From a virus, in IMG/VR virus record IMGVR_UViG_3300018946_000033, positions 5,717 through 69,716 of that record: a DNA stretch of 64,000 nucleotides; one strand, written 5' to 3'. The notes below the pieces were generated by a model. The model was given only the letters and a program-made list of their open reading frames with translations, did no database searches and had not been told where the DNA came from. Shown here piece after piece: positions 1 through 64,000 of the stretch (its first letter is position 1; each line of letters opens with the position of its first letter). Position numbers and translations under genes: made by a program.

Positions 1-2
1 CG

Positions 3-341
3 GGCGACGAGCCGGCCGTGATCACTACGGGCGAGACCGACCCGAAGGAAGCCGCGCTCAACTTCCTGACCAAGTACCTGAACACGCAGAACCAGAGCCC
101 CCAGGGATGGCGTGACAGCTTCATGCCGCTCGTGTCGGCCGAGTACCAGGCGACCCTCGCCGAACTGCAGCCCGAGGACGTCGGGGTGACCCGTGTAGGC
201 ACGCCCACCCGCGCCTACTCGGGCGGCGACCGGCTGTTCGTTGTTGAGGTGCCGGCCGCGACGGGCGGCACGATCACGGTCACGTTGAACGGCTCGTCCG
301 GTCAGTGGCTGGTGTCCGACTTGTCCCGGAGCCGGCAATGA
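3..341 (+). CDS. 5'-truncated conjugation-associated protein (NTF2/VirB8-like fold suspected)
   Basis: Frame open to window edge; ends GQWLVSDL like NTF2-type folds; ATGA-coupled to the M23 gene. Confidence 0.5.
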   Translation, partial: GDEPAVITTGETDPKEAALNFLTKYLNTQNQSPQGWRDSFMPLVSAEYQATLAELQPEDVGVTRVGTPTRAYSGGDRLFVVEVPAATGGTITVTLNGSSGQWLVSDLSRSRQ

Positions 342-1513
342 AGCGGGCACGGGTGATCGCCCTCGCCGTGTGCCTGACCGGCTCAGCAACCCTGCTGTGC
401 GTCGGCGGGACAGCCACCGTGTCGCTGATGTCAGCGTTCGGGGTTGTGCCCCCGGCGGCGCAGGCCGCGGGCTGCGGCGCGCCGGAACCGGTCGTGTCCG
501 CGCCGGCGCCGGCGTCCCCGGTGAAGGGCTTCACCGACGCGCAGGTCCGCAACGCGACCGCCATCGTCCAGGCCGGTCAGTCCATGGGCGTCCCGCCCCG
601 CGGGTGGGTGGTGGCGGTGGCCACCGCCATGCAGGAGTCGACGTTGAAGAACTACGCCAACGACAACGCGGCATATCCGGAGGTCAGGCGCCTCAGCCTG
701 GCGATCCCGCACGAGGCGGTCGGGCACGACCACGACTCGGTCGGACTGTTCCAGCAGCGCCCGGTAGAAGGCGACGGCGGCTGGGGCACCGTGAGCGAGC
801 TGATGACGCCCTCCGTCAGCGCGAAGAAGTTCTTCGACGCGCTGCTCAAGGTCTCGAACTGGCAGGGGCTGCCCGTGACGTTGGCCGCGCAGAGGGTCCA
901 GCGGTCCGCCTTCCCGGGCGCCTACGCCAAGCACGAATCAGCCGCGGCGGCTCTGGTCGGTGCGATCACGGGCGGGGCGGACAAGGTCGCCGCCGCGGCA
1001 CCGGTGGCCGGCGTGTGCGCCGAGCCGGACGTGGTGACCGCCGGCGGCTGGGTCCGCCCGGTGGTTGCGAAGCCCGGCTCCGGGTTCCGCACCGCGAGCC
1101 GCCCCACCCATCAGGGCGTGGACCTCATGGTCAGCCGCAGCACCCCGATCAAGGCGGCCAGCGCCGGTTCGGTGATCCGCATGCGGTGCAACGCCGTGCA
1201 TGCCGGTTCGGGTGGCGAGTGGGGCTGCGACCGCGACGGCCATCCCACGCTGGTCCGCGGCTGCGGCTGGTACGTAGACATCGCCCACGCCGACAACATC
1301 GTGACCCGCTACTGCCACATGGTCCGCCAGCCCGACGTGAACGTCGGCCAGAAGGTCGCGGCCGGGCAGCAGATCGGCTTGGCCGGCACGTCGGGCCACT
1401 CGAGCGGGGTGCACCTGCACTTCGAGGTTCACCTCCGCGGCGACACCTCCAGCGCGGGCGCGGTTGACCCGGTCCAGTTCATGCGCGACCACGGGGCGGC
1501 ACTCGGTGGCTGA
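338..1513 (+). CDS. Secreted peptidoglycan hydrolase: lysozyme-like domain plus M23 peptidase
   Basis: N-terminal hydrophobic anchor; ATAMQES...SVGLFQQ; M23 motifs HQGVD and HLHFE. Confidence 0.9.
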   Translation: MKRARVIALAVCLTGSATLLCVGGTATVSLMSAFGVVPPAAQAAGCGAPEPVVSAPAPASPVKGFTDAQVRNATAIVQAGQSMGVPPRGWVVAVATAMQESTLKNYANDNAAYPEVRRLSLAIPHEAVGHDHDSVGLFQQRPVEGDGGWGTVSELMTPSVSAKKFFDALLKVSNWQGLPVTLAAQRVQRSAFPGAYAKHESAAAALVGAITGGADKVAAAAPVAGVCAEPDVVTAGGWVRPVVAKPGSGFRTASRPTHQGVDLMVSRSTPIKAASAGSVIRMRCNAVHAGSGGEWGCDRDGHPTLVRGCGWYVDIAHADNIVTRYCHMVRQPDVNVGQKVAAGQQIGLAGTSGHSSGVHLHFEVHLRGDTSSAGAVDPVQFMRDHGAALGG

Positions 1514-2585
1514 CAACCAGGCGCCGAGGCGCTTCACCTCAGACGACGTCGAGAACGCCGTCAACATCGTCATCGTGCTCGCGGTCGCTGTGGCGAGCCT
1601 CGCGTCGGCGTTCACGCACATGCACGACTGGACCATGCGGGAAATGCCGGCCGGCACCGAGGGATGGTTCGGCTGGTCCAACGCGATGATCCCCGAACTG
1701 CTGGCACTGGCTGGGCTGCTGTCGCTGCGTCGGCGAATGAAGTACCGGGCGAAATACCGGATGGCCGCAGCGGTGACGCTGGGCGGTGCGGTGTTGTCCC
1801 TCGCCGCCCAGCTCGCCGCGGTCGGTTCCGGGGCGAGCGTGTCGGCGAAGTTCCTCGCGGCGCTGCCGGCGTTGGCGGTGCTGGCGCTGATCAAGATGGT
1901 GACGTCGGACCTCGACCTCGGCCGGAAGATGTCGAACGCCAAGGCTGAGGCCGCCGCGGAGGACGCTCGGCGGCGCGCGGAGCAGGCGGCAATTGTGGCC
2001 CAGGCGGAGGCGGAAATTGCCGCCGCTGAGGCGGCAAAGGAAGCGGCAACGGCGCAGGTCGGAGCGGCAAACGCCGAACGCGACGAAGCGGCAGAGCGGG
2101 CGGCAAACGCGCTGGCCGAGGTGGCGGAGTTGCGCCTGCTGCTGGAGGAGCGCGCGGCGACTCTTGAGGAAGCCGAGGCGGCAATCTCGGAGCGGCAAAC
2201 CGCTCTTGACCTGCGGGCCGACGAACTCCGCACCGCCAAGGAGGCACTCGCCGAGGCGGAAATGCGGGAGGAAATCCGGGCGCGCGTTGAAGCGGAAGCC
2301 GCTGGCAGCCAGCGCATCGCCAACCGGAAATCCGCACCGGCAAAGAGGGCGCCCCGCACGTCGGAGCTCCCCGCCAACCTGCCGCTTGTCGAGGGCGTGA
2401 AGCGGGAAACGGTGGCCGCCGTACTGGCGGCAATCGAGGCGAACCCGGCGGCGACGCAGGCGGCAATTGCCGCCTCGACTCGGCTGTCCGAGCGGACCAT
2501 CCGCACGGTCATCAAGGCGGCAACTTTGCCGGCGCAGACCAACGGCCACGACCACAACCTGACCCCCACTGGAGCCACCCCATGA
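1506..2585 (+). CDS. DUF2637/Spd-like membrane protein with coiled coil and C-terminal HTH
   Basis: About 4 TM segments with SAFTHMHDW, Ala/Glu coiled coil, HTH-like ATQAAIAASTRLSERTIRTV. Confidence 0.7.
   Translation: MADNQAPRRFTSDDVENAVNIVIVLAVAVASLASAFTHMHDWTMREMPAGTEGWFGWSNAMIPELLALAGLLSLRRRMKYRAKYRMAAAVTLGGAVLSLAAQLAAVGSGASVSAKFLAALPALAVLALIKMVTSDLDLGRKMSNAKAEAAAEDARRRAEQAAIVAQAEAEIAAAEAAKEAATAQVGAANAERDEAAERAANALAEVAELRLLLEERAATLEEAEAAISERQTALDLRADELRTAKEALAEAEMREEIRARVEAEAAGSQRIANRKSAPAKRAPRTSELPANLPLVEGVKRETVAAVLAAIEANPAATQAAIAASTRLSERTIRTVIKAATLPAQTNGHDHNLTPTGATP
1985..2530 (+). repeat. Cluster of GCGGCAA/GCGGAAAT direct repeats and an 18-bp palindrome (candidate clt or protein-binding array)
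   Basis: GCGGCAA at 1986, 2031, 2043, 2064, 2100, 2178, 2192, 2427, 2460, 2517; AGGCGGCAATTGCCGCCT at 2458-2475. Confidence 0.6.
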
Positions 2586-4273: not shown

Positions 4274-6535
4274 GTGACTCAGCCCGACGCGTCGAACTGG
4301 CCCAAGGCGCCAGCCGCGCCCCCGCGCCCAGAGAAGCCTCGGCCCCCGACGCTGATGCAGTGGGCGACCGCGCCCATGCGCCGCGCAGCCGACGACGCCA
4401 AGGCGAAGGCCAAGGCGGCGGCGAAGGCAAAGGCCAGGAGCGTCGGGCACGCGGCATCAATCAAGGCCCGTCACGCGTCGGCCGAGACTCGCACGCACCG
4501 CCCATCCGCTGTGGTCGCCGCCGTGCTGTTCGTGTTCGGGCTGAACCTGGCAGGCAACAACCGGCTCGGCGCCGTCGCTCTCGGCATCCTGGTCGTGGCG
4601 CTCGCCGCGCCGGCTGCGTACTGCGCCACGTACCTGCGTCTCCGCAGCCAGGCCATCCGCAACGGCAAGGTCGAAGAGTTCGCGGTCCGCAAGGACGGCA
4701 AGCGGGCGCGGGACACGGCCCGCCAGGTCGCCGCCGCCGCGGTGGCGTTCGGCGGGTGGACCTTCGTCGCCGGTGTCGTTGGCGTCAACCCCGGCTCGGT
4801 GCTCGGATCGGCCGGCGCGTTGTTCGTCGTCCTGCTCGGGTTCGCCCTCGCCGGCATCGTGACCCGCCGCCACTGGGCGCACCTCTCAGAAGAGCGGGAC
4901 CGGCACCGCACCAACGACCGCAAACCCACTGAGGTTGAGCTGCCGGTTGCCGAGGTTGAGCCTGCCCCCGTGCGAGTGAAGCGCGACGAGCACTGCACCT
5001 ACCAGCTCCCATCCATCGACATGCTCGGCGCCGGGGAACCCCCGAAGACCCGCAGCAAAGCCAACGACGTCGTCATTGCCGCGCTTCGTGGCGTGTTCGA
5101 CGAGTTCAAGGTCGACGCCGACGTCACCGGCTTCACCCGTGGACCCACCCTCACTCGATACGAGGTGGAGGTCGGGCGAGGCGTCAAGGTCGAACGGGTG
5201 ACAAAGCTCGCCCGCAACATTGCCTACGCAGTAAAGAGCGGCGACGTCCGCATCCTCGACCCGATCCCGGGGAAGAGTGCCATCGGCATAGAGATCCCCA
5301 ACATCGACAGAGAGAACGTTGCGCTCGGTGATGTGCTGCGGTCCGCCGCCGCCCAGGCGGACCACCACCCGCTCCTCGTCGGCCTCGGCAAGGACATCGA
5401 GGGCGGGTACGTCGTGGCAAACCTGGCCAAGGCGCCGCACATCCTGATCGCCGGCGCGACCGGTGCGGGCAAGTCGAGCTGCCTCAACACGCTGCTCTGC
5501 TCGATCCTGACCCGGGCCACACCGGACGAGGTGCGGCTGATCCTCGTCGACACGAAGCGCGTCGAGTTCACCGGGTACGAGGGCATCCCGCACCTCATCA
5601 CCCCGATCGTCACCAACCCGAAGAGGGCCGCCGACGCCCTCGACTGGGTTGTCCGCGAGATGGACATGCGCTACGACGACATGGCCGCAGCCGGCGTCCG
5701 CAACATCGACGAGTACAACGCGAAGGTCCGCGCCGGGCAGATCAAGGCGCCCCTCGGCAGTGACAGGGTTATCCGCCCGTACCCGTACCTGCTCGTTGTG
5801 GTTGACGAACTGGCCGACCTGATGATGGTCGCGCCCCGCGACGTCGAGGACTCAGTGGTTCGCATCACGCAGCTCTCGCGGGCGTCCGGCATCCACTTGG
5901 TGCTGGCCACCCAGCGGCCCTCTGTGGACGTGGTCACCGGACTGATCAAGGCGAACGTGCCGTCCCGGTTGGCGTTTGCCACGTCGTCGCTGACTGACTC
6001 GCGGGTCATCCTGGACCAGCCGGGCGCCGAGAAGTTGATCGGCAAGGGCGACGCCCTGTTCCTGCCGATGGGCGCGTCGAAGCCGACCCGCGTTCAGGGA
6101 GCCTGGGTGGACGCGAAGGAGATCGCGGACGTCGTGAAGCTCTGCAAGGAGCAGCGTGAGCCGGAGTTCGTCCCGGACGTTGTGGTGCCGCTGACCGGCC
6201 CGGCTGCGGTCCCGGTTCATGTTCAGGTTCCCCCGGCTCCGCGGCCGGGCACGTCCGGCGTGACTACCGCCGATGTGTTGCTGGCGGTAGTAGCGCGCCG
6301 TCCGGGTTGCTCGTCGGCGGACATTGCGGCGCACCGGGTGTGGGCTGAGCACGGTGGTGTTCCGCACCAGACGACGTTGTCCACGCGAGTGCCGGAGCAG
6401 CTCGCCGACGCAGGCCTGCTGACCCGGGACAAGCGGGGTGGCGCGTGGGTGAACTACCGCCTCACGCCGAAGGGCGAGGCACGCGCCGAGATTGTGGTCC
6501 CGTCGGTGTTCCCGCCGGAGGACGTGGCGGCCTGA
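4274..6535 (+). CDS. FtsK/SpoIIIE DNA translocase, TraB-type architecture
   Basis: N-terminal TMs; Walker A GATGAGKS, Walker [16 protein letters not shown]; C-terminal winged-helix-like segment. Confidence 0.92.
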
Positions 6536-6617: not shown

Positions 6618-6836
6618 ATGGCTGTTCGATTCGAAGTGTTGAGCCCCGATGGCAGGACGATGCTCTCCGGGGTGGACCGGAGCTTCGCCGACCTGCCCGC
6701 GCAGGCGGTCGCCGACTGCCTCGCGTTGGACTGGCCCTCGGGCCACGAGGTTCGCGTGTGGGCGACGGGCGACGCGGTCGCGGTCCGCGCTGTCGCGGAA
6801 TCGGTGGCGCCGGACGCTACGGCGGTGGCGCGATGA
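6618..6836 (+). CDS. Hypothetical protein
   Basis: GAAGGAG RBS; first of a coupled small-gene array. Confidence 0.7.
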   Translation: MAVRFEVLSPDGRTMLSGVDRSFADLPAQAVADCLALDWPSGHEVRVWATGDAVAVRAVAESVAPDATAVAR

Positions 6837-7093
6837 CCGCGTACAACGAGGACTCGCGGGTGCGGCGGGTCACCGAGTACATGCTCTCCGTCCAGACCGG
6901 CGACAAGTACGACGTGTGCGCCTGGTCCGCCACGGACAGGTGGTTCGCCTATCCGTCACTTGGTAGCTCGGCGATGCGGGCGGCCGATTTGCGGAGCCGC
7001 GAGGATACGGAGGAGTGGTTGTTGCAGGCCAGGACGGGCCCGTTCCGGACCGCCGATGAGGCGATCGCGTCGCTGATCGGGGACCCGCGATGA
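6833..7093 (+). CDS. Small protein, paralog of 8461-8733
   Basis: ATGA coupling; TGPFxxADEAI motif. Confidence 0.75.
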   Translation: MTAYNEDSRVRRVTEYMLSVQTGDKYDVCAWSATDRWFAYPSLGSSAMRAADLRSREDTEEWLLQARTGPFRTADEAIASLIGDPR

Positions 7094-7305
7094 GCGACTT
7101 CACCCGGCCGCAGCAGCACCTGTTGACCCACGTCGAGCCGGGCCCCGAGGTGACGCACGTGCGGGATCGTCTGAACGTTCGGTGGCACCGCGACGGCGAC
7201 TATTGGTGGGCCGACATTGGCTACGGCTACGAGGTCCACCACACATGGCCCGGGGTGTTGTCACGCGAGCCACTGACCGATGCGAGTTCCGAGGCGGCCG
7301 GATGA
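7090..7305 (+). CDS. Hypothetical Trp-rich phage protein
   Basis: ATGA coupling. Confidence 0.7.
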   Translation: MSDFTRPQQHLLTHVEPGPEVTHVRDRLNVRWHRDGDYWWADIGYGYEVHHTWPGVLSREPLTDASSEAAG

Positions 7306-7511
7306 GCCGGGCTGTGATCCGCATGTTCGACGGCATCCAGGTGATCGACCCGTTGGCAGCAGGCGACCGACCAGAGGTTCTGCTCCTGCGCGCGAACTGG
7401 TCGGCATTCCGCCGCGGTCGCGTCGACCTGCACTACACCGACGAGAGCGGCGTTCCACGCGTCGCCGAATTCGACTACGACAACATCATCGACATCGAGA
7501 TCACCGGCTAG
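7302..7511 (+). CDS. Hypothetical protein
   Basis: ATGA coupling. Confidence 0.7.
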   Translation: MSRAVIRMFDGIQVIDPLAAGDRPEVLLLRANWSAFRRGRVDLHYTDESGVPRVAEFDYDNIIDIEITG

Positions 7512-7596
7512 CTGCGCCGTTGGGGCGGCCCGAGCTTGCCGGCAGAGCCGCCCCTCCGACGCCCACAACCCCCGAGAGAGAAGGAGCACCAACATC

Positions 7597-7803
7597 ATGG
7601 CGCAAGCCGACATGCTCACCCTCGACACCACCTACACAATTCAACTGCTCAACCGGGACGGCTCGTGGAGCTGGTACTCGCAGGTGGAATACACCGACGA
7701 GGTCGACGCCCACGACTTGGGTCGCCGGATGTACGGCGGCGAGGTGGCGTACCGGGTCGTAACGATCACCCGGCACGTCGGCGAACCGGTTGGTGCGCGA
7801 TGA
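7597..7803 (+). CDS. Hypothetical protein
   Basis: GAAGGAG RBS. Confidence 0.75.
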   Translation: MAQADMLTLDTTYTIQLLNRDGSWSWYSQVEYTDEVDAHDLGRRMYGGEVAYRVVTITRHVGEPVGAR

Positions 7804-8000
7804 CCGACGGCAAGCGCTACGCCCTCTACTATCCGCGCGGCATCGACCAGTTCGCCGACAACCTGCGTCCGCACATGAGCAGCCACCCCATCACCGTGTA
7901 CGGCACCGACGACCTGAACCGCAGGCTCGCCGAAGCCGAGCAACTCGGCATTCAGGGTCAGGTCACGTGGGAGGAACTCACCGGGGAGGAAGGCCGATGA
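7800..8000 (+). CDS. Hypothetical protein
   Basis: ATGA coupling. Confidence 0.7.
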   Translation: MTDGKRYALYYPRGIDQFADNLRPHMSSHPITVYGTDDLNRRLAEAEQLGIQGQVTWEELTGEEGR

Positions 8001-56092: not shown

Positions 56093-56298
56093 GAGGGGTT
56101 CCTTCGCTTGGTGATGGGTGAGACGTTGCTGGGGGTCGGGGTGGTGGGGGTCGGCGCTGCCGGCGGCCCGCATGCCTTGCAGCGCCAGCCACGGGCGTAG
56201 AGCTGGGCGGAGGTGTCGACACACTTGGGTCCGTCCACCGCGCAGTGGCCTTTGCGGACCGGCTGGTGGGTCGGGGCGACCGGCATCGGGGCGGTCAT
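56089..56298 (-). CDS. Small Zn-binding protein
   Basis: C..C..LYARGWRC; ATGA coupling. Confidence 0.6.
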   Translation of the reverse strand: MTAPMPVAPTHQPVRKGHCAVDGPKCVDTSAQLYARGWRCKACGPPAAPTPTTPTPSNVSPITKRRNPS

Positions 56299-56867
56299 GC
56301 CGTCACCCGCCGCTCGAGCACCCCGGCGATGTCGGGCGGGCTGTACAGGTCGGACTTCATGACCTTGCCGTCGGCCCGGTACACCGGCTGGCCGTCGGCG
56401 TCGAGCTTGCTCATGTTCGAGCGGTGAACCTCGGCGAGGACGGCGTCGAGGGGGATGCCGTAGCGGGCGGCGATGAGGTCGGCGAGCCGTGCGACCCGGG
56501 CCAGCCTGTGCGCTACCGCGGGAACGTTCCGGCTGGTCGTCGCGGCGCAGAGCCGCTGTACGGCGGCCATCATCCGGCTGATCGGCAGGTAGGCATCGGC
56601 GTAAGGGAGGGCGTAGGCCACGGCCCGGTCGAGGTCGATGCCGAACTCAAGCGCGGTGCCGTACGCGACGTACACGATGTCGGCCAGCGCATCGGCGATA
56701 TCAACCAGGTTGCCAGCGAGGACCGCCTCCCCGAGTTCGTCGGACTCTTCCTCGATGAGCGCGTTGCGGAGGGCGGCCCGCTCCGCTGTGACCCCGCCGG
56801 GCGGGGGTCCGAGCGGCTGCCCGAACGCGGCGTGGAACTCGCGCACGTCGTCGGCGATGCGGTTCAT
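56295..56867 (-). CDS. MazG-like nucleotide pyrophosphohydrolase
   Basis: VREFH, EESDEL, DALADIVYV, EVHRSNMSK, DGKVMK. Confidence 0.88.
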   Translation of the reverse strand: MNRIADDVREFHAAFGQPLGPPPGGVTAERAALRNALIEEESDELGEAVLAGNLVDIADALADIVYVAYGTALEFGIDLDRAVAYALPYADAYLPISRMMAAVQRLCAATTSRNVPAVAHRLARVARLADLIAARYGIPLDAVLAEVHRSNMSKLDADGQPVYRADGKVMKSDLYSPPDIAGVLERRVTA

Positions 56868-57211
56868 GACGCCGCCTGCTCGTCATCAGTTGTCCCGGTG
56901 ACGTTCCAGTCGACGTCGCTGCACCACCAGCACTGCTTGTGACCCGGGATGTCAGCGTCGCCCTCGTACTCCAGCCAGTGGTGCTCGCAGGTCCCCTTCA
57001 GGTACTCGCAGAGGTCGGCGCCCATCGCGTGATGTCCCGCGTTGGTGCCGTAGACGGCGAGGAAGCTCTCGATGCGCCAGAGCCAGCGCCTGTCGGGAGG
57101 CGTGGGGCAGGGGTTGCCCCTGGAGTCGGTGGTGGTACAAAGCGTCAGCGGGGCGCGGTCAACCCAGGTCGTGCCAGGAACAGCGCGGAAGGTCCCGTCG
57201 GCGGTCATCAT
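56864..57211 (-). CDS. Hypothetical Cys/His protein
   Basis: CEHHW...CWWC; coupling. Confidence 0.65.
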   Translation of the reverse strand: MMTADGTFRAVPGTTWVDRAPLTLCTTTDSRGNPCPTPPDRRWLWRIESFLAVYGTNAGHHAMGADLCEYLKGTCEHHWLEYEGDADIPGHKQCWWCSDVDWNVTGTTDDEQAAS

Positions 57212-57630
57212 GAGGCCACCGCCCGCTCAACGGGCTTGGTCCCTGCGATGATCCGCTCACCGTCGATGCCGTACTCCACGAGCCAGTCGGCGATGAACTC
57301 ACCGGACCCTTCGCCGTTCATGGCGAAGTTGACCCACCGGGCGATCTCGTCGGCCTTGTCGGGGGCGTGTTCGGTGAGGGCGCGGAGACAGGCGACGTAG
57401 CCGAAGTAGCCGGACATGCGCCCGAGCAGGAACGCCCATTCGCGGGCCGCGTCCTTGTCGACCCCGGGCGGGGTCTGCAAGTAGTAGTGGCTGCTGATCC
57501 GCGCGAGGTCGGCCTGGACTTGGCAGGCGAGGTGGCGGGCCAGCGCGTCGGCGGTGACGGTGCTGTCGTCGTAGGGGGCGACCTGCTTGACGTACTCGTG
57601 GGCGGGCTGTGCGAGTTCGGCGCTGTCCAT
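57208..57630 (-). CDS. Hypothetical protein
   Basis: AAAGGA RBS. Confidence 0.7.
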   Translation of the reverse strand: MDSAELAQPAHEYVKQVAPYDDSTVTADALARHLACQVQADLARISSHYYLQTPPGVDKDAAREWAFLLGRMSGYFGYVACLRALTEHAPDKADEIARWVNFAMNGEGSGEFIADWLVEYGIDGERIIAGTKPVERAVAS

Positions 57631-57704
57631 CTCGTATCCTTTCGGTGGTTGTGGCGTCCCGCTGGCTTCGCTGGCTCGGTGGGGCGCCATGGCTTTGCTT
57701 GGGG

Positions 57705-57902
57705 TCAGGCGATGTCTGGGAACTCGAGGAGCGCGAGGATGTCCGACTCGCGGAACCGGCGGTGCCCGCCGGGGGTGCGGATCGACGAGAGCCGCCGGGC
57801 TTGGGCCCACCGCGTTACCGTTTTCGCGTCCACGCGCAGGAGGCAGGCAACTTCGTAGGGCGTCATGAGCCGTTCGGTGGTGCGCGGTTCGGTGGTGCTC
57901 AT
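57705..57902 (-). CDS. bldC: BldC-like MerR-family DNA-binding protein
   Basis: LMTPYEVA.LLRVDAKTVTRWA...SIRTPGGHRRF. Confidence 0.85.
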   Translation of the reverse strand: MSTTEPRTTERLMTPYEVACLLRVDAKTVTRWAQARRLSSIRTPGGHRRFRESDILALLEFPDIA

Positions 57903-57944
57903 TGCTGGTCCCCGTTCGTGGTGGTCTGGTTGGTGGAGCGGCGG

Positions 57945-58529
57945 TCAGGTGCCGGCGAGTTCGGTGATGGTGACGACGACTTCGCCGAACGGGCAGCGTT
58001 TCGGGTCGGTGACCTTCGCGCCGAGCCGCACGAACGGCCCGTCGAGGTATTCGGCGGTGTCGTCGGCGATCAGGCCGTGGCCCGCGGCAACGACGCGCTT
58101 CCCGGCGCGCATCTTGTCGATGGGCGGCCCGAGGGCGTCGACGCACGGCTTCACGACGTGGGTGTAGTAGTTGCCCGCGTCTTTACGTCCGTGCGTCGGG
58201 AAGCGGAGTTCGAACTCAACTCGCACACGAGGCAGGCACTGGGGGAGCCGCGCGTATCGGGCGTAGGTGAACATCGACTCGCGCCACGTCTTGTGGACGG
58301 GTCCGGTCTTGCGCCAGTGCTGGTGCCCGCTGTTGACGGAGAGCATCCGGTCGGGGGCGGGGAACCTCAGCGTCCACACCCGCATGCCGTCGGTGCCCGC
58401 CTCGACGGCGAAGCTGACGGGTGCCGTGGTGTCCACGACAGGCTTGGGCCTGCGCTTGACTGGCTTCCTTGGGCCGGCGGCGAGGACCGGGGAGCCAGTC
58501 CCCGCCGCCGGTGACACGGTGGCGGTCAT
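57945..58529 (-). CDS. RusA-like Holliday junction resolvase
   Basis: LSVN, RKDAGN, KPCVDAL, LIADD. Confidence 0.75.
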   Translation of the reverse strand: MTATVSPAAGTGSPVLAAGPRKPVKRRPKPVVDTTAPVSFAVEAGTDGMRVWTLRFPAPDRMLSVNSGHQHWRKTGPVHKTWRESMFTYARYARLPQCLPRVRVEFELRFPTHGRKDAGNYYTHVVKPCVDALGPPIDKMRAGKRVVAAGHGLIADDTAEYLDGPFVRLGAKVTDPKRCPFGEVVVTITELAGT

Positions 58530-58948
58530 GACATGCCGCCGATGATCAGGGCGGAAATGAACAGGCAGCCGACGTGTAGCGCCTGGTCGGCCAAGTACAT
58601 GCCGTTCATGCCGTTGGATGTCAACTGCGCGAACTCGGCCGAACCGGTCCGTTCCAGATACCACCGCACCGGCCAGCGCCGGTCGATGAACCCGTGCGTG
58701 GCGGCGGAGAACAGGAGCGCCACGCCCACGCCGATCCACGACATGCGTACCCCCGCCACGGCGAGCGCGCCGAGGAACGCGGCGAGCGTCAGGTGGTAGC
58801 CGGCGAGGTGACCGAGCATGGGCCGCAGCCAGTTCTTCGACTGCGCTTTGCCGAGCGCTTGGGCGTGGGTTTGACCAGTGACGTGGTCCCCGACCTGGTG
58901 GCCCGCGTAGAGGGCGGCGAACGCGGCTGCGATCACGGTGGCGGTCAT
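58526..58948 (-). CDS. DUF3307 membrane protein
   Basis: HQVGDH, HGFIDRR, DQALH. Confidence 0.85.
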   Translation of the reverse strand: MTATVIAAAFAALYAGHQVGDHVTGQTHAQALGKAQSKNWLRPMLGHLAGYHLTLAAFLGALAVAGVRMSWIGVGVALLFSAATHGFIDRRWPVRWYLERTGSAEFAQLTSNGMNGMYLADQALHVGCLFISALIIGGMS

Positions 58949-59232
58949 GCTGCACCACCCACGGATGCCCACAGCGGGCAGTTGGTCCGGATGCCGCTAC
59001 TCAGGTCAATCTCTGCGCTTGCGGCGCAGCGCTCGGGGCTCACGTACCCCACGTCGGGCTCGCTCGTGTCGACAACGTGATGGACGCATGTCCTGCACGC
59101 ACGGACGCCGGGGTTGCTCCAGCACCGGCCGATATGATCGAGTGCCCGCGCCCGGGTGGAGTGGGACCGGCCACAGTGGGTGCACCGGTAGCGAGTGACC
59201 CGGATCTTCTCGGGTTCGATGGTGGCGGTCAT
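58945..59232 (-). CDS. Zn-finger protein
   Basis: CTHC...H..C...CRTC. Confidence 0.7.
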   Translation of the reverse strand: MTATIEPEKIRVTRYRCTHCGRSHSTRARALDHIGRCWSNPGVRACRTCVHHVVDTSEPDVGYVSPERCAASAEIDLSSGIRTNCPLWASVGGAA

Positions 59233-59459
59233 GCCGCAGCGCCCGGGCGGGTGTCGACCGGGGTGACGCCGTACGCGTTGCCGTCGAGGTCGGAGCCGGC
59301 GTTGACCAGGGCGTCCGCCATCTCGGCCTGATCGAGGCGGTAGCGCGCCTCGTCCAGGGCCATGGCCTTCTCCTGGCCGTACGTCTCGCCGGCCTGGCGG
59401 ATGGCTTCTGCGGCGTCGCGGCGGTACTCGGCTGCGAGCCCGGTCAGGTTGGTGCTCAT
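59229..59459 (-). CDS. Hypothetical protein
   Basis: ATGA coupling. Confidence 0.6.
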   Translation of the reverse strand: MSTNLTGLAAEYRRDAAEAIRQAGETYGQEKAMALDEARYRLDQAEMADALVNAGSDLDGNAYGVTPVDTRPGAAA

Positions 59460-60370
59460 GCTGCGATCGCCTTTCCCTTGGTGGTGGTGACGTTCAGCGG
59501 CCAGTCGCCGGTGATCCCGTCCGCGCGCTTGATCAGTTCGGCCGCGTCGTCGCGGAGCACCTGCGCCCGTTCGTCGGCACTGAGCGCCTCGTCGCCGGGC
59601 GGCTCCGACTCGCCGGCCTGGTCCTGCATCTCGGCGGCCTTGCCGCGCCAGTGGACGGCCAGCGACTCGGCCTGCTCCGCGAACCAACCGACCTGCGCCG
59701 TGTGCACTTCGGCGAGGGACATGCGGCCCAGAGCCCGCCACGTGCGGGCGAGGCTGTCCGGGTACTTCCGGTCGGCGTAGAGCTGGCGCAGGTCGGCGTC
59801 GGACATCACGGACCGTTCGGCGATGCGGCGCACCACATCCACGGCGGCTAGGGCGTCAGCGGCGGCGTCGTGCGCGTCGACTAGCTCGACGTCGTAGTTC
59901 TTGGCGACGTCGGCGAGCTTGCGGGAGCCCGGCCGGTACCGGTCCGTGGCCTTGTCGAGGACGAAGCCGTCGAGGACGGGCCAGATGTCACCGCCGCAGA
60001 AGGTGGTCAGCGAACCGAGGCCGTTGCGGGCGCACTCCGCGTCGAGCATCGACAGGTCGAACGCCACGTTGAAACCGACCACGGCGGTGCCGGCGCCCAG
60101 CGCGTACCGGATGGCGCCCGCGATCTCCCTGACGCCCTGCTCGGCGGGCATGCCGTGCTCGCGGGCGTGCTCGGTCGTGATGCCGTGCACGGCGGTCGCC
60201 TCGGCCGGGATGTCCACGTCAACGGCAATCAGCCACTCCTTGCGGTACTTGACCTCACCGTTCTCCACAATCGCGGCGCAGGCCGACACGATCCTGTCGC
60301 CGGCCACGTCCGTGCCGGTCGTCTCCAGGTCGAAGGCGAGGCAGCGGGCGGGCATCCACGGGGCGGTCAT
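59456..60370 (-). CDS. DnaQ-like DEDDh 3'-5' exonuclease
   Basis: FDLETTG, VHGIT, FNVAFD, AHDAAADA. Confidence 0.9.
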   Translation of the reverse strand: MTAPWMPARCLAFDLETTGTDVAGDRIVSACAAIVENGEVKYRKEWLIAVDVDIPAEATAVHGITTEHAREHGMPAEQGVREIAGAIRYALGAGTAVVGFNVAFDLSMLDAECARNGLGSLTTFCGGDIWPVLDGFVLDKATDRYRPGSRKLADVAKNYDVELVDAHDAAADALAAVDVVRRIAERSVMSDADLRQLYADRKYPDSLARTWRALGRMSLAEVHTAQVGWFAEQAESLAVHWRGKAAEMQDQAGESEPPGDEALSADERAQVLRDDAAELIKRADGITGDWPLNVTTTKGKAIAA

Positions 60371-61065
60371 GCGTCCGCCCGATCCGAAGCGGCGCGACAG
60401 GTGCACTCGCCGTCCACGTTTTCCCGCTGGGGGCACGTGGAGTAATGCCGGGCGCGATCGGCCAACTCGGCGAGGGCAGGCCCGTCAGCCGGCAAGCCCC
60501 GTGTCAGCGCCGTGTGCAACGGCGTGCGCTGAATCCATGCCTCCGGGTTCGCCGTTGCGTGGTGGGCATCGTCGAGAAGCTGGTCAGCGGTCCTTTCCGA
60601 CATGTGGTCGGTGCTGATCAGCAGGTACGTCCCTCGTGCGAACTTCGCGGCGATCCCGGTCGCGTTCCGGACCAGCCAGCGGGAGGCGTTGAACCGCCAC
60701 GTCTCGTCCATGTCGGCGATGGCGACCATCGGCCGTCCGTTGGGCTTCCACTTCTCGCCCTGCTCAACGTATTCGGCCCACGACATGCCGAGGTTTGCCG
60801 GCTTCGGGGTCGCCTCGGCCACCGTCCGGATCGCGCCGGACTCGATCTCGTCCAGCAGTTCCGCCATGGCGCGCCTGTCAACGACGTGACGGCATGGCCT
60901 CATGTCGACGCCCTGTGCGCAGCACCCGAACCACTCCGGGGCGGTCGGGTCCTGGCCTCGCGCGGCTTTGCAGGAGGCCAGGCTGGTGCCGCAGCCCTCG
61001 CAGGGGGCGGCGTCCCGGATCGCCTGACGGCGGGCCGCGATGACGTCCTTGTCGATGGCCATCAT
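60367..61065 (-). CDS. Hypothetical Cys-rich protein
   Basis: CEGC..C..CC..C N-terminus; coupling. Confidence 0.7.
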   Translation of the reverse strand: MMAIDKDVIAARRQAIRDAAPCEGCGTSLASCKAARGQDPTAPEWFGCCAQGVDMRPCRHVVDRRAMAELLDEIESGAIRTVAEATPKPANLGMSWAEYVEQGEKWKPNGRPMVAIADMDETWRFNASRWLVRNATGIAAKFARGTYLLISTDHMSERTADQLLDDAHHATANPEAWIQRTPLHTALTRGLPADGPALAELADRARHYSTCPQRENVDGECTCRAASDRADA

Positions 61066-62264
61066 CACTTCACCTGCCCGGCACGCACCGCGGCGAGAAA
61101 CTCGGCGTACTTGAACCCGGTCGCAACCTCGTCGTCGGACGGGTCGTGGCCCATGTGCGCCCGGTACTTCTCCTCGATGGCCGGCAGGTTCCACTTCAGC
61201 GGCTGGGCGGCCCGCATGATCGCGGTCCACACGTCGTCCTTGTTGGGCTCCTCCTCGGCGTCGATAGTCTGTGTGTCCGCGGACTTCGCCGTCGCGGATG
61301 CCTCAGCGACCTGGGCGGCCTTGGCCTTCCACGCATCCACCAACTGCGGATCGCGAACACCGGCGGAGCGCATCAGGCCCATCAGCTCGTTCACGGCATT
61401 GGTCGTTGTCGCCGCGGCGACGCGCGCCGCCCAATCGACCGTCGGGGCAGACGGCTTGACTTCCGAAGCGGATGGGGAGGGCGCGGCCGGCAGCGCGACG
61501 CGCTGCTCCTGCGGCGCCCCGATCGCGGTGCGAACCGCCGCGTCGATCGCCCCACCGAACGCCTGCGCCGGGGTGAACAGGCCGAAGAAGTCCAGCACCG
61601 GCACCACGTAGTTGCGGGACTCGACCTTCTCGCCGTCCTTGCCAAAGGTCAGTTTCTTGTCGCCTCGGGCTTCAAGCTTCAACAGCGCCGGGATCGGCTG
61701 TGTAGCGGCGGCGATCGACGCGGCCAGGGTGGGCAGCTCCGACGCGGCGTTCCACCCGTGGGCCTCCAACTTCAACGTGCCCATCGACGGGATGTCAGCC
61801 AGCATCAGCGACATGCGCGTGGTCGGCTTGCAGTCGTCCTTGGTCCGCTCGAACCGGCCATCCTCCGGGAACGGGCGCTTCGCCGCGGCGTACCGCTGCT
61901 GCGCCGCCGCCTCACACAGGCACGGCTGGCCGCGGAGCTTCTCGGCGATCCCGTCACACATCCGCGACCGGTAGCCGTTGCCCCACAGTTCGAAGTTCGG
62001 GTCGATGTTCTGCGGCGGCACGAACACCGGGATCTCGGTCGCCCGGGTCACCACCTCGAACTCAGGGCCCGACGGTGACTGCCACGGCTTCACCGTGCCG
62101 CCGTACAGGCCGGCAACGGCGTCGATGAGCGCCTTCGACGGCGACGTGATGCGGAACGAGTCGAGCGCGGCCGGGTACTCCTTGTTGTTCTTGGATAGGC
62201 GCTTCTCGCCTAGGCGGATGACACCGACCTGGGTCAGGCGACGCTGCAGGGATGCGATGGGCAT
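61065..62264 (-). CDS. Gp3-like recombination protein (probable annealase/RDF family)
   Basis: GVIRLG, FRITS, YGG, CDG, CKPTTR; adjacent to exonuclease. Confidence 0.75.
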   Translation of the reverse strand: MPIASLQRRLTQVGVIRLGEKRLSKNNKEYPAALDSFRITSPSKALIDAVAGLYGGTVKPWQSPSGPEFEVVTRATEIPVFVPPQNIDPNFELWGNGYRSRMCDGIAEKLRGQPCLCEAAAQQRYAAAKRPFPEDGRFERTKDDCKPTTRMSLMLADIPSMGTLKLEAHGWNAASELPTLAASIAAATQPIPALLKLEARGDKKLTFGKDGEKVESRNYVVPVLDFFGLFTPAQAFGGAIDAAVRTAIGAPQEQRVALPAAPSPSASEVKPSAPTVDWAARVAAATTTNAVNELMGLMRSAGVRDPQLVDAWKAKAAQVAEASATAKSADTQTIDAEEEPNKDDVWTAIMRAAQPLKWNLPAIEEKYRAHMGHDPSDDEVATGFKYAEFLAAVRAGQVK

Positions 62265-62287
62265 GGTTGTGGCTCCTGGGGTTCCGA

Positions 62288-63409
62288 TCAGAAGGGAATG
62301 TCGGTGGGCTGCTGGTCACGCGCGGCGACGATCAGCGCGAACGGGTCAGGCTTGAGTGGGGCAGGCTCAACATCGGCGGTGACCGGTTGGTCTTTGCGGC
62401 CCAATGTGAACGTGTGCGACGACACGGCCGCCGGCCCGCACTCGGAAAGCCAGGTGTACAAACCCAGGGCGTGGAGGAACCCTTGGAACGTCTGCTCCGT
62501 GGCCACGGCGAGCCGGGCCGTCACTCCGTCGGGGCGGAGTTGAACGATGACCGCCCCGTCGGTGTCGGGCATGGGGACGTCCACATCAGTGCCTTTGATC
62601 CGCACAAGGGGCGCCCACCGGTAGCCGGACAGTTGCAGCGCTTGGTTCGGGTAGAAGCTGGCACCTTCACCCTCACGGGACTTCCAGTCCACGAGAAGGT
62701 CGACGGTGCGCTTGTCGCGGCGTACGGCCTTCTGGATCGCCTCGGAGGTCTTGAGGCTCGAGTACTCGCCGTTAAACCGCAGCTGCCGTGCGACGAGCTT
62801 GCACGCCGAGTCGGTGGCGCAGGCGTCGAACCGGAGGAGCCCGTCGCAGGTGCCGGCGTACTTCTCGGCCGGGTTGATGACGGTTCCCTCGGCCATCAGG
62901 AACGACTCGGGTGTGATGCCGTACTCCTCGACGAATGCGAGGAACGCGGCAACGTACGGCTTGATGTCGTCGTCGTGGGGGCGGATCTCACCGTGCATGG
63001 ACCACCACTCGGCGACGTCGTGAACGCGCATGCCCTCGTCGGAGCGGCGGGCGGACTCGGCGAAGTGCCGGTCGGCGAGCCACTTCGCGACGCACGCGCG
63101 GCAGTCGCCGCACGGGCAGCGCGGGCAGCGGTCTTGCCACCCGTGGGTTTTGCGGCAGCGGCTGTTCGTGTTGTCGCAGGCCTTGACCCGTGATGCGGTG
63201 ATGACGGTGGGCAGTTCGATGAACGCCGCTTCGGCCGCGAGTTGCGTCTTCCAAATGTCCAGCCCGATCTTCGCGATGGCTTTGAACGCGGTGGTGACGG
63301 AGGTGAGTCGGCCGTAGGGCTCGAAGTAGTAAGTGCGGTCCCCGGTCTCCTCGTCGGTGGTGGAGTTGGCCGGGCCTAACCGGGGCGCGGGGTTGAGGTC
63401 GAGAGTCAT
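62288..63409 (-). CDS. PD-(D/E)XK exonuclease with Cys-rich insertion
   Basis: SVTT, GMRVH, YAGTCD, VDWK, LQLSGY. Confidence 0.85.
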   Translation of the reverse strand: MTLDLNPAPRLGPANSTTDEETGDRTYYFEPYGRLTSVTTAFKAIAKIGLDIWKTQLAAEAAFIELPTVITASRVKACDNTNSRCRKTHGWQDRCPRCPCGDCRACVAKWLADRHFAESARRSDEGMRVHDVAEWWSMHGEIRPHDDDIKPYVAAFLAFVEEYGITPESFLMAEGTVINPAEKYAGTCDGLLRFDACATDSACKLVARQLRFNGEYSSLKTSEAIQKAVRRDKRTVDLLVDWKSREGEGASFYPNQALQLSGYRWAPLVRIKGTDVDVPMPDTDGAVIVQLRPDGVTARLAVATEQTFQGFLHALGLYTWLSECGPAAVSSHTFTLGRKDQPVTADVEPAPLKPDPFALIVAARDQQPTDIPF

Positions 63410-63594
63410 CGCTTGGCCTCCTCGTCCCACGACCAGCGGAGGAACTCGGCGAGGCGGTTGGGTTCGCGCTTCTCAACCCGGCACGGCCGGCCTCGGCGGG
63501 CCATTTCGAAACTGGCGGTGGCCGCAGCGCCGACCGGGCCGAAGTCGATGGGGCCGGCGATCGTGTCGAACGTGACGATCAGGTGGGTGCTCAT
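63406..63594 (-). CDS. Hypothetical protein
   Basis: ATGA coupling. Confidence 0.55.
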   Translation of the reverse strand: MSTHLIVTFDTIAGPIDFGPVGAAATASFEMARRGRPCRVEKREPNRLAEFLRWSWDEEAKR

Positions 63595-63782
63595 GTCGGC
63601 CACCCCGTCCCGGTGGTCTTGTCGACGGGCAGGTCCGCGCCCATGGGGGCGAGGTCGGCGAGGAGCTGGTCGGCTTCCACCTCGTCGAGGCGGTCGCGGT
63701 CGGCGAGGCGGGCGGTCGCGGCGCGGAGCAGGTCACCCAGGCCGGTGCGGCGGTGGTGCGATCGGATCTCGTGGGCGGTCAC
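63591..63782 (-). CDS. Hypothetical protein
   Basis: GGAGG RBS, coupling. Confidence 0.55.
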   Translation of the reverse strand: MTAHEIRSHHRRTGLGDLLRAATARLADRDRLDEVEADQLLADLAPMGADLPVDKTTGTGWPT

Positions 63783-64000
63783 AGCGCACCTCCGGAGGCT
63801 TCCTTCAGGGCGGCCTCGGCGGCGACGGCCGTCAGGCTGAACGCGTGGGTCAATTTCGTGCCGGGCTCGTTAGCCACGAAGTCCTCGGCGGTCTTCCGCA
63901 GCCGGGCCACGTACTCGACCGCCGCGGCGGGGCTGATGGCGTGGAACTCGCGGACGAGCTCGCGTGCTGTTGCGATCTGGGCGCTGGCGACGGGGCTCAT
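63779..64000 (-). CDS. Hypothetical protein, may extend beyond window
   Basis: Open to window edge. Confidence 0.55.
   Translation of the reverse strand: MSPVASAQIATARELVREFHAISPAAAVEYVARLRKTAEDFVANEPGTKLTHAFSLTAVAAEAALKEASGGAL

Follow-up and report, generated by a model that had tools for sequence, protein, structure and literature searches.

The stretch of DNA analyzed here (64,000 nt, positions 5,717 to 69,716 of the virus record IMGVR_UViG_3300018946_000033; hereafter the window) lies within an integrated element of 95.2 kb in which two sets of genes converge. A transfer-type half spans window positions -27.3 to +11.3 kb (negative positions lie to the left of the window) and ends in a plus-strand operon with a VirB4-like ATPase and an FtsK-family translocase. 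A phage half follows from about 11.5 to 67.9 kb, nearly all of it on the minus strand, with a late operon that runs from 40.6 down to 11.5 kb. The window is the minus strand of positions 187490-251489 of C70, a 289,913-bp chromosomal contig of 69.7% G+C that belongs to genome G000 (6.32 Mb in 84 contigs). Because the DNA is 65-71% G+C throughout, genes were called by third-position G+C, which gave 88 genes in the window and 322 on C70. The right end of the element is present in four public runs of one study labeled biocrust metagenome, and the genome is therefore a metagenome bin. Its best protein matches come from Dactylosporangium, Actinoplanes, Micromonospora, and Pilimelia, which places the host in the Micromonosporaceae.

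An integrated element with a single att pair

The element is integrated in a chromosomal tRNA-Met gene and reaches 27 kb beyond the window on the left and 3.9 kb on the right. Its attachment (att) sites and the genes mapped next to them are as follows:

-27355: attL, 71-bp repeat of the tRNA-Met 3' part
64173-64622, right of the window: SsgA-like gene
66413-67714, minus strand: intact tyrosine-type integrase, 433 aa, 127 nt inside attR
67841-67911: attR, second copy of the 71-bp repeat

We found genes for tRNA-Asn and tRNA-Met 27.3-27.6 kb to the left of the window, the latter intact at the left att copy; the att repeat corresponds to the 3' half of this tRNA-Met gene (55 bp exact, 71 bp with one mismatch). 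The window itself contains no tRNA gene, and Rfam gave no match within it. The repeat occurs twice in the whole genome, and a short-word BLAST of C70 returned no degenerate third copy. Inward from the integrase lie a divergent, repressor-like gene of the Cro/CI helix-turn-helix (HTH) type, an HTH_17 excisionase-like gene, and the SsgA-like gene. The host side of attL carries genes for ThuA, an ABC transporter, and the primase (dnaG, -34001..-32151), and one host gene of this left flank was matched in 16 of 18 family genomes, with a single match in 14 of them. The extent of 95.2 kb follows from the single att pair, the terminal integrase, and the dnaG-bearing flank. One att-bounded integrated unit joins a siphovirus genome, a VirB4-type membrane module, and an FtsK-derived pump; since the virion genes and the module lie together between one pair of att sites, with one integrase at the end, these are parts of one element.

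At attR, Logan contigs from the four runs end at the tRNA repeat, their loose ends being tRNA-Met genes of other organisms, and neither an attP nor an attB form is readable in them; one Logan contig of 24.4 kb spans attR into the element. In relatives of the host an empty attB is not demonstrable, because the right-flank gene belongs to a multi-copy family without synteny.

These borders bear on a preliminary description made from the window alone. Its statement that the window holds no att-flanked integrase and no host genes is literally correct and nevertheless misleading, as the att pair, the integrase, and dnaG lie just outside. Its proposal that virion genes and a transfer-type module form one element is borne out by the single att pair and terminal integrase, by the missing third att copy, and by a second contig with the same layout (G609, below). 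The contrary arrangement that it had considered, an actinomycete integrative and conjugative element (ICE) and a prophage side by side, each with its own att sites, is not what we observed: only the outer att pair is present.

Two further observations concern the element ends. A 91-aa gene on the host side of attR (67960-68235; L003:15766-16041) is 68% identical to an element gene at -19311..-18925, which suggests that it is a remnant of an earlier occupant of the tRNA site. Just inside attL, the sequence CCGTGGACACACC occurs three times (two direct, one inverted) at -27251..-27217, next to a short GntR-like gene, recognized by eye, that abuts attL; these repeats may be arm-type or operator sites.

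A VirB4-type module with a chromosomal counterpart and an FtsK-derived pump

The plus-strand operon starts about 6 kb to the left of the window and ends at 11326. It opens with a module that encodes, in order, proteins of 103 aa (three transmembrane (TM) segments) and 118 aa (one TM segment), an 860-aa ATPase, a 556-aa protein with seven predicted TM segments, a 211-aa protein with one, and an M23 peptidase. It then continues with a 373-aa TM/coiled-coil/HTH protein, five small genes, a 753-aa FtsK-family protein, and 14 more genes. The features that reach into the window are:

-294..341 (window part 1-341), plus strand: 211-aa single-TM protein, fifth gene of the module (TM scan)
338-1513, plus strand: secreted M23 peptidase, a cell-wall hydrolase (PF01551, E 5.4e-21)
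1464-2585, plus strand: 373-aa protein, three TM segments and an Ala/Glu-rich coiled coil (TM scan, translation)
1986-2523, no strand: GCGGCAA array, 12 heptamers (10 plus, 2 minus), candidate clt-like docking site (k-mer clustering)
4274-6535, plus strand: chimeric FtsK-family translocase, 753 aa (PF17854, E 5.2e-25; PF01580, E 4.1e-66)
6636-11326, plus strand: 14 small or medium co-directional genes ending the transfer operon (gene call)
11467-11510, minus strand: terminator hairpin at the convergent junction (20-pair stem with 14 G-C pairs, T-tail)

The hairpin lies where the late phage operon converges on this FtsK operon, a convergence that the preliminary description had recognized. The main transfer genes, those for the VirB4-like ATPase and the 7-TM protein, lie just left of the window and were therefore invisible to it, and its identification of TraB and Spd functions did not hold: the pump scores 55.1 bits on the NCBIfam model NF041214 plasmid_TraB against a cut-off of 800 (and 365 bits on FtsK PRK10263), no gene read as Spd matched any family, and what accompanies the pump is a VirB4/TcpF-like ATPase together with a polytopic membrane protein and an M23 peptidase. 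The 860-aa ATPase matches PF12846 AAA_10 (E 7.6e-17) and has a P-loop (GGGKST) and a Walker B motif (VGLDEA); on the TcpF model it gives E 3.4e-26, far under the exception-type cut-off of 1100. Weaker matches, both under their cut-offs, are a lysozyme-like PF18896 SLT_3 domain at the N-terminus of the M23 peptidase (E 0.0018) and an HTH_24 domain at the C-terminus of the 373-aa protein (E 0.0083). Pfam returned no family for the window part of the 211-aa protein (1-341), which has homologues of 30-33% identity in the same position in G609 and in the metagenome locus L146, nor for any of the 14 genes at 6636-11326, one of which (8951-9307) has matches of 42-44% in L146.

Five of the module genes have collinear paralogues at the start of the host contig C62 (32, 51, 62, 45, and 49% identity), the M23 peptidase among them at 49%. 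An ATPase of the C62 type is encoded by 116 of 121 family genomes (113 of 118 without three that are flagged as unpublished) at 69-89% identity and nearly always as a single gene; G000 alone has a second full copy. Across a class-wide sample, a VirB4-like gene was found in 28 of 301 genomes and was universal in one other family (20 of 20, at 30-33% identity). No protein among 5.8 billion exceeds 65% identity to the ATPase of the element, and the top matches that are named are Micromonosporaceae proteins, mostly on large, chromosome-sized contigs. The stretch from ATPase to hydrolase is a diverged paralogue of a chromosomal cluster that is present in nearly every genome of the family. That cluster (C62:2220-10063, locus L030) encodes two small TM proteins, a VirB4-like ATPase of about 1100 aa, a large membrane protein, and an M23 hydrolase, and in genome G115 it additionally includes an 893-aa FtsK-family ATPase. 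Its role in Micromonosporaceae seems to be undescribed, the only mention being an isolated 'VirB4-like' entry in the gene list of a genome paper (PMC4182475).

Homologues of the ATPase also occur on 110 actinobacterial plasmids at 25-38% identity (66 in Rhodococcus, 13 in Streptomyces, and 12 in Prescottella), none of which could be linked to SLP2 by name. On the small linear plasmid pSM17C, the order is coupling protein, two small proteins, ATPase, large protein, small protein, and NlpC/P60 hydrolase, with a GntR regulator elsewhere on the plasmid; the large protein and the hydrolase occupy the same places as the 7-TM protein and the M23 hydrolase of the module. In gene order, the module agrees with the transfer modules of actinobacterial plasmids. 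The ATPases also compare in length: that of the element has 860 aa, that of pSM17C about 864, and those of P0003, P0023, P0028, and G609 have 841-852, against mostly about 1035-1240 aa for full-length chromosomal copies. In a quick VirB4 tree, the element falls together with three more copies that are likewise short and on long branches, a grouping flagged for long-branch attraction and taken as a lead only. None of 50,697 phage records matches the VirB4-like protein, and a limited full-text literature search, which cannot show that none is in print, met no description of such a gene in an actinomycete phage. The chromosomal genes cmdABCDEF of Streptomyces coelicolor, with the VirB4-like CmdB, affect sporulation septation and chromosome segregation, and homologues of this cluster on the plasmid SLP2 are required for conjugal transfer (PMC2782261).

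The pump is a chimera. Residues 241-639 are 86% identical (345 of 399) to the host FtsK encoded on C51, with Walker A and B motifs present; the first 240 residues, with four TM segments, and the last 113 have no counterpart in that protein. Pfam gave no match to the gamma domain (PF09397) at E up to 0.01; the host FtsK has a canonical gamma sequence, and the alignment between the two stops at residue 639. A careful tree of 27 motors, from which L059 (unpublished) and L068 and L069 (both partial) were left out, places the pump motor as the sister of the host FtsK (support 99/96) within the clade of the family, with branch lengths of 0.29 for the element and 0.015 for the host. This placement indicates that the motor derives from the FtsK lineage of the host itself. 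A quick FtsK tree that includes G609, G610, L146, and the plasmid pVMKU suffers from long-branch distortion and settles nothing on one versus several captures. Among 3136 candidates drawn from the 5.8 billion proteins, the C-terminus of the pump matched only itself; its neighbors in the Atlas are FtsK_gamma clusters at 0.79-0.80, a level often reached by shuffled proteins. A mobile FtsK is not a new idea, since translocases close to chromosomal FtsK are also encoded by Micromonosporaceae and Streptomyces plasmids (70-74% identity) and by certain phages, with large mycobacteriophages reaching 51%.

Upstream of the pump gene, the heptamer GCGGCAA forms an array inside the gene of the 373-aa protein. 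No other 7-mer of the 95-kb element is as strongly clustered; the window holds 36 copies against 16.95 expected, and 12 of the 36 fall within 538 bp. The codon pair GCG-GCA makes up 10 of 24 Ala-Ala pairs in this gene and 72 of 1948 in the other genes of C70, and protein composition alone therefore fails to explain the array. Arrays of other sequences occur elsewhere: L146 has 12 copies of GTCCGGA within 600 bp, and in G609 a 600-bp stretch that separates the hydrolase gene from the pump gene has 10 copies of CCGGACC and seven of CGGACCCC. The transfer arm and the phage half have no 13-mer in common that would serve as a regulatory motif.

To the left of the operon lie a minus-strand block with genes for a DUF4429/SHOCT protein, a GNAT protein, an epimerase, and a 487-aa XRE regulator and, further left, small plus-strand genes that include DprA/SLOG-like, NADAR, RNA-ligase-like, and DUF6036 genes. 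In the transfer half as a whole 69 proteins were called, of which 67 were scanned whole and one in part. With matches accepted up to E 0.01, these scans gave no integrase, relaxase, Par, or Rep family except for one RepC match under its threshold. The gene set at -22710..-10442 (L001, L002; DUF6036 being a nucleotidyltransferase family) is reminiscent of anti-defense or leading-region genes. Between two divergent genes of the left arm, a 1.16-kb non-coding gap (-16117..-14955; L001:14956-16118) is dense in palindromes and repeats, with two copies of ACCCCCTGTACAGGGGGT and eight of GATACCCC; an origin or another regulatory switch may lie here.

The phage half and a second contig with the same layout

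We found the joint layout again on G609, an IMG/VR contig of 85,698 bp with a CheckV completeness estimate of 97%, one of four viral contigs returned by a profile-type IMG/VR scan with alignment A3 of seven VirB4-like proteins. Its plus-strand module encodes an 841-aa ATPase (62% identity), a 7-TM-type protein (43%), and a hydrolase (52%), and its pump is a 708-aa FtsK-family protein with a motor 66% identical to that of the element. A converging minus-strand run encodes a holin-like protein (33%), minor tail proteins (46 and 56%), Dit (48%), the tape measure (36%), the tail tube (47%), and TerL (34%), and next to these come a SNase-like gene (41%), an Xer-type recombinase (40%), and homologues of four early genes of the element (32-56%). 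Directly upstream of the internal recombinase lies a dif-like site, CACATAA-N6-TTATGTG. The right end carries a second tyrosine recombinase beside an apparent tRNA 3' fragment, seen by eye, where ARAGORN called no tRNA. Altogether, G609 encodes collinear homologues of 26 of the element's 143 proteins, at 30-66% identity. Since the same joint layout persists at this divergence, the combination of phage and module is conserved rather than accidental, and the two have long been inherited together.

Other relatives are less complete. In G610 (163 kb), the module is accompanied by an FtsK-like gene (51%) and by homologues of the tape measure and of Dit, in a different arrangement, and G611 and L146 have the module and no recognizable phage genes. 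Single-protein scans for close kin of the VirB4-like protein gave no viral contig and two short genome contigs (59-62%). A metagenome scan with P0023 gave 80 loci, P0023's own contig not among them; when these were searched with the element proteins by tblastn, L146 alone paired the module with an FtsK-like motor (50%), eight others reaching about 28-32%. The other relatives of the tail proteins in IMG/VR come from hosts of 41-66% G+C and have no module within 10 kb.

The phage genes can also be followed through the terminase. Among phage records, 1521 match TerL, all below 60% identity (best 37.7%, a 61-kb Arthrobacter phage), as do 102 plasmid records, likewise all below 60%. Of 301 family genomes, 17 have TerL relatives (best 62%), the common genes being those of the head and some of the tail. 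Prophages in G115 and G016 share TerL at 60%, the portal at 47-57%, and the capsid at 48-49% identity. In these TerL-relative genomes the VirB4-like genes lie more than 3 Mb from the prophage; related heads therefore exist without the module. As the related-head prophages in G016 and G115 lack the module nearby, the hybrid is a layout that is conserved yet rare, and not a general trait of this phage group. The ends of the G016 prophage were not found via repeats or tRNA genes; a tRNA-Met gene lies just upstream of its terminase (G016:C1, about 8266717-8266793; locus L018). In G115, the first 16 kb of the 62,067-bp contig G115:C2 (L020, L024-L026) equal the last 16 kb of the 9.18-Mb chromosome contig G115:C1 at 99.4%, and this common stretch carries head genes related to those of the present phage. 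Possible explanations are a prophage at the chromosome end, overlapping assembly of the two contigs, or a copy outside the chromosome.

The features of the phage half within the window are:

11554-16671, minus strand: distal late operon, lysis region (TM scan, phrog_17055, Pfam)
11554-11904, minus strand: holin-like protein, three TM segments (TM scan)
12996-14441, minus strand: secreted subtilase (Peptidase_S8 and Inhibitor_I9)
15907-16671, minus strand: candidate endolysin, 254 aa (language-model and structure neighbors, lead only)
16952-28742, minus strand: tail module with minor tail, Dit, tape measure, chaperone-position, tube, completion, and connector genes (phrog_1885 and others)
19240-20166, minus strand: Dit (SPP1_Dit)
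20184-25448, minus strand: tape measure, 1754 aa
26299-26877, minus strand: tail tube (Phage_TTP_17)
28739-31693, minus strand: 984-aa right-handed beta-helix protein between head and tail genes (PF12708 and PF13229)
32310-40579, minus strand: head and packaging module with capsid, protease, portal, TerL, and SNase-like nuclease (Pfam)
32783-33649, minus strand: capsid (Pfam)
34222-36102, minus strand: ClpP-type capsid maturation protease fused to a 2H domain (Pfam)
36113-38215, minus strand: Mu-type portal (Pfam)
38673-40193, minus strand: TerL (Pfam)
43351-44512, minus strand: Xer-type tyrosine recombinase, 373 aa (gene 43351-44472), with its own site (PF00589 and PF02899)
47117-52595, minus strand: replication genes for a 249-aa protein, a RecD-like helicase, a 591-aa protein without assignment, PrimPol, and a 55-aa protein
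47863-49140, minus strand: RecD-like helicase (AAA_30 and UvrD_C_2)
51517-52431, minus strand: PrimPol (Prim-Pol)
52699-52749, no strand: three palindromic boxes of the GTGGATATCCAC type (CGTGGATATCCAC type; repeat family D7, clustered k-mer)
53082-64000, minus strand: early genes (Mom-like, two WhiB-domain, MerR/HTH_17, SSB, MazG, DnaQ-like exonuclease, and Gp3-like)

Pfam and PHROGs confirmed the siphovirus virion operon that had been described from the window (TerL, portal, protease, capsid, tube, tape measure, and Dit). With the integrase beside att and the repressor-like gene, the predicted gene content is the full packaging, head, and tail set of a temperate siphovirus. We also obtained a Phage_cement_2 match in one small protein of the head module, the exact member not being pinned down, and a Tail_completion_gp17 match in the tail module. 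The N-terminal fusion of the protease is a 2'-5' RNA ligase/2H phosphoesterase domain (E 3.8e-07). The pectate-lyase-like 984-aa protein lies between the capsid and connector genes, an odd position for a depolymerase-like protein.

In the region described as a lysis operon, a holin-like protein and three small TM proteins are encoded at 11554-16671; Pfam and PHROGs gave no endolysin family. The Atlas neighbors of the 254-aa candidate are viral clusters with VldE or PG_binding_1 on 13-91% of their members, and PDB sequence searches with two proteins of the lysis region gave nothing meaningful. Two short plus-strand calls interrupt the late operon at 12370-13051. The subtilase in this region, with its I9 propeptide, has a 68% paralogue on the host contig C25.

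The early operon continues past the window through the SsgA-like, excisionase-like, and repressor-like genes to the integrase. The replication genes and nearby repeats reported earlier are present; the reading of these repeats as iterons is unproven, as they are palindromic, operator-like boxes upstream of the PrimPol operon, in its promoter region. On C55, an open frame of 1656 aa for a TrwC-type relaxase adjoins paralogues of the element's PrimPol and SSB (C55:8228-12627), and this region has the look of a further conjugative element of G000, one of the classical type.

The internal recombinase lies 4.3 kb upstream of TerL and has an 11-6-11 site with an ATAA-N6-TTAT core immediately upstream of its ATG. 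One recombinase with one adjacent symmetric site, this position, and conservation in G609 fit, by analogy with Cre/loxP, a role in circularization or dimer resolution of element DNA. The Xer/dif pair noticed in the window thus holds up, with resolution plausible, and the plasmid lifestyle attached to it is not implied: alone, the recombinase with its site gives no argument for a plasmid state. A 61% paralogue of this recombinase is encoded on the 62-kb contig C13 (C13:37274-38323), and the only other site in the genome that resembles the target lies 14.6 kb from it, at C13:22671 (24 of 28 bases, near-perfect palindrome). The C13 pair may be a second single-recombinase system.

Possible roles of the element and known systems

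We consider it an evenly balanced proposition that this temperate siphovirus-type element, besides making virions, exports itself as double-stranded DNA (dsDNA) in a TraB-like manner through its FtsK chimera. In this scheme, the integrase would excise the element, which could then make virions. Alternatively, the chimera would pump the element as dsDNA, its private C-terminus docking on the GCGGCAA array, and the VirB4-like module would build an envelope passage that the M23 hydrolase would open, such that element DNA could pass into neighboring hyphae or hyphal compartments. The internal recombinase and its symmetric site would circularize or resolve the DNA, as Cre/loxP does for P1. In the element an FtsK-family pump takes the place of a coupling protein, much like the TcpA-type pumps of Firmicute systems. 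DNA transfer by the element is inferred from its genes. A broader proposition, which we hold tentatively and regard as rather unlikely, is that an actinomycete phage lineage built a DNA-export machine from host parts, namely a copy of the VirB4-type cluster and an FtsK motor re-aimed at a phage array, and uses it to move its genome between hyphae, compartments, or spores without virions.

Several observations weigh against export. The element is known from genes and contigs of a metagenome bin alone, with no transfer, excision, or virion observed, and its layout has one clear second member, G609, the left end of which is lost at the contig start. Scans of 139 of the 143 element proteins as whole sequences gave no relaxase family, and no protein of the element matched a VirD4/TraG-type coupling protein in Pfam or NCBIfam. 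Because neither was found, a classical type IV secretion mechanism is unsupported. Six-frame searches found PF03432 (Relaxase) nowhere in the genome and TrwC (PF08751) on C55 only; relaxase families beyond these two were covered by the protein scans. The nearest kin of the module are chromosomal (60-65%), plasmid-borne ones reaching only 25-38%. The chromosomal cmd genes of Streptomyces act in sporulation and could not replace the SLP2 genes in transfer (PMC2782261). The AF2 model of the C-terminal 113 aa of the pump is unusable (pLDDT 36.5), and most of the heptamers are read in frame as part of an Ala-rich coiled coil, nine of the 10 plus-strand copies encoding Ala-Ala-X. On the phage side, the element lacks a recognized endolysin family, and genome sizes are 45-61 kb in the phages whose terminases are most similar, which puts in question whether 95 kb would fit the capsid.

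The main rival is a role inside the cell, in development or segregation, which we judge unlikely. Here the copied sporulation and segregation gear (cmd-type VirB4, FtsK motor, SsgA, WhiB, and a BldC-like regulator) would serve within the infected mycelium, for instance by steering septation, loading DNA into spores, or crossing cross-walls, without transfer to other individuals. The kinship of the module with the clusters of 116 of 121 family genomes and the septation and segregation phenotype of the Streptomyces cmd genes (PMC2782261) speak for it, as does the sister relationship of the pump motor to the host FtsK. The SsgA-like gene (64173-64622), the two WhiB-domain proteins, and the MerR/HTH_17 protein of the element also fit a developmental role, and PhiNon1 likewise has an ssgA-like gene (PMC5431353). 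Against this, the ATPase has the short form of pSM17C, P0003, P0023, P0028, and G609 whereas chromosomal copies are mostly longer, the pump combines the lack of a detectable gamma domain with a private C-terminus beside a private array, which is the logic of TraB and clt on plasmids, and the small GntR-type regulator recognized by eye at the left end has counterparts on plasmids, with L146 and pSM17C being similar in this respect.

It is very unlikely that the two halves are chance neighbors, that is, a decayed ICE that lost its integrase and middle att site and was stranded by an unrelated prophage, with no joint function. The left 38.8 kb do lack relaxase, integrase, Rep, and Par families, accretion often produces phage-ICE tandems, of which 612 cases have been curated (PMC13651849), and the 68% identity between the gene just outside attR and a left-arm gene hints at earlier occupants of the site. 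Random adjacency, however, would not outlast the divergence at which G609 retains the joint order (30-66% identity); moreover, the long frames are intact (860, 556, and 753 aa), the ATPase motifs are present, and there is no third att copy or remnant.

Still less probable is the free conjugative phage-plasmid with an iteron replicon and Xer/dif resolution that the preliminary description had proposed. It could draw on the internal recombinase with its adjacent site, on the PrimPol and helicase genes near repeats, and on published actinomycete plasmid-phages, of which PhiNon1 is both tRNA-integrated and a 17-copy circle (PMC5431353), and a transient replicating circle is compatible with the contig data. 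For the state seen here, a free phage-plasmid is already contradicted by integration between 71-bp att repeats in a dnaG-bearing chromosomal contig and by copy number. Logan depths, given as one figure per contig and from runs that are possibly the assembly's own sources, were 22.9 for the element and 21.5 for the host flank in run X1 and 27.8 and 25.6 in run X2; the coverage comparison suggested earlier thus yields ratios of 1.07 and 1.09, about one copy per chromosome, with no raised plasmid copy number. A six-frame search for ParB_N gave two matches in the genome, on C37 and C34, and none in the element; ParA gave no match in the protein-family scans of the element, its sole test; and the only match resembling a plasmid initiator was RepC at 17.9 bits, under the cut-off of 22.8. 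Of the partition genes and repressor that were to be looked for beyond the window, a repressor-like gene is indeed found at the right end, ParB_N is not found in the element, and the supposed iterons are the palindromic boxes in a promoter region. Finally, an assembly chimera of phage and chromosomal or plasmid DNA is scarcely credible: although the bin consists of 84 contigs and the Logan contigs break at the tRNA repeat, flank and element depths agree in two runs, a Logan contig of 24.4 kb connects attR with the interior of the element, and the transfer and late operons meet at the same junction on the independent contig G609.

If the broader proposition on a machine built from host parts is correct, the locus would represent a TraB-like conjugation pump newly arisen from a cell-division gene. 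It bears on the origin of actinomycete dsDNA conjugation, as the motor is 86% identical to the host FtsK and nevertheless has a private anchor, C-terminus, and array. Gene flow through phages is usually considered apart from that through conjugative elements. An integrated element with access to both routes would alter the picture of host range, of resistance to phage defense, and of mycelial spread, and prophage predictions in actinomycetes would under-call mobility. The pair of chromosomal and mobile copies also offers a handle on the role of the conserved VirB4-like cluster.

Among known systems, pZL12/phiZL12 of Streptomyces and PhiNon1 of Nonomuraea gerenzanensis are likewise large tailed-phage genomes of mycelial actinomycetes with plasmid traits. 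A traA-traC locus has reportedly been defined in pZL12. Replication, transfer, and a plasmid/lytic phage cycle all appear in the title of the paper on pZL12, and the plasmid has ParA and ParB (PMC4487206); in contrast, our element has no ParB_N match and is integrated at about one copy. PhiNon1 is integrated in the 3' end of a tRNA-Val gene (PMC5431353). We found no sequence kinship with the plasmid-phages: the 15 listed of the 102 TerL-matching plasmid records reach 29-33%, and none of these is from Streptomyces.

Phage-ICE tandems resemble the element in that a prophage directly adjoins a conjugative module at a tRNA site and the phage integrase can mobilize the entire unit. The 612 curated cases come from seven phyla, 28 of them in Mycobacteroides, and the authors describe site-specific accretion of two complete elements and say that these are not hybrids (Huang et al. 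2026, Sci Adv, PMC13651849). The element differs in that it has only an outer att pair and one terminal integrase, its module has no integrase or relaxase of its own, its second recombinase lies within the phage half with a different site, and the fusion is conserved in the diverged G609.

In its proposed way of working, the element would resemble the TraB/clt systems of Streptomyces plasmids and actinomycete ICEs (pSVH1, pIJ101, and pSAM2), in which a membrane-anchored, hexameric FtsK-type pump with a private C-terminal DNA-binding end of the winged-helix type binds a cluster of short repeats near its gene, a GntR/Kor-type regulator is present, and there is no relaxase. Vogelmann and colleagues are said to have described the TraB architecture and its 8-bp clt repeats in 2011. 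Unlike these systems, the element has a motor 86% identical to the host FtsK, a TraB model score under the cut-off, and a VirB4-like module, which TraB systems lack.

That module is comparable to cmdABCDEF (SCO4126-4131) and SLP2.19-23 (Xie, Zeng and Qin 2009, PMC2782261), co-directional clusters of membrane proteins around a VirB4-like ATPase with chromosomal and plasmid copies, as in C62 and the element; the likeness rests on the description of CmdB as VirB4-like in a six-gene membrane operon. The family cluster differs from cmd by its M23 hydrolase and, in G115, the 893-aa FtsK-family ATPase. On pVMKU of Micromonospora maris, a mobile translocase close to the chromosomal FtsK (72% identical to that of the element, 75% to that of the host) lies beside a type IV coupling protein. 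In contrast to the element, pVMKU is a 58-kb circular plasmid with ParA and ParB, and no phage product is annotated in the 35 kb viewed. Micromonospora is not named among the plasmid matches to the VirB4-like protein, in a tally of which one genus is not shown.

The internal recombinase recalls Cre/loxP of P1, which circularizes terminally redundant DNA and resolves dimers and which is likewise a single tyrosine recombinase with one adjacent symmetric site a few kb from packaging genes. The site of the element differs by its dif-type ATAA-N6-TTAT core, and its function is suggested, by analogy, by its position and its conservation in G609. In summary, the element is already known in kind through pZL12, PhiNon1, and the phage-ICE tandems; new are the VirB4-type module as a diverged copy of a family-wide cluster, the pump motor of host origin, and the single-att fusion that G609 has in common with it.

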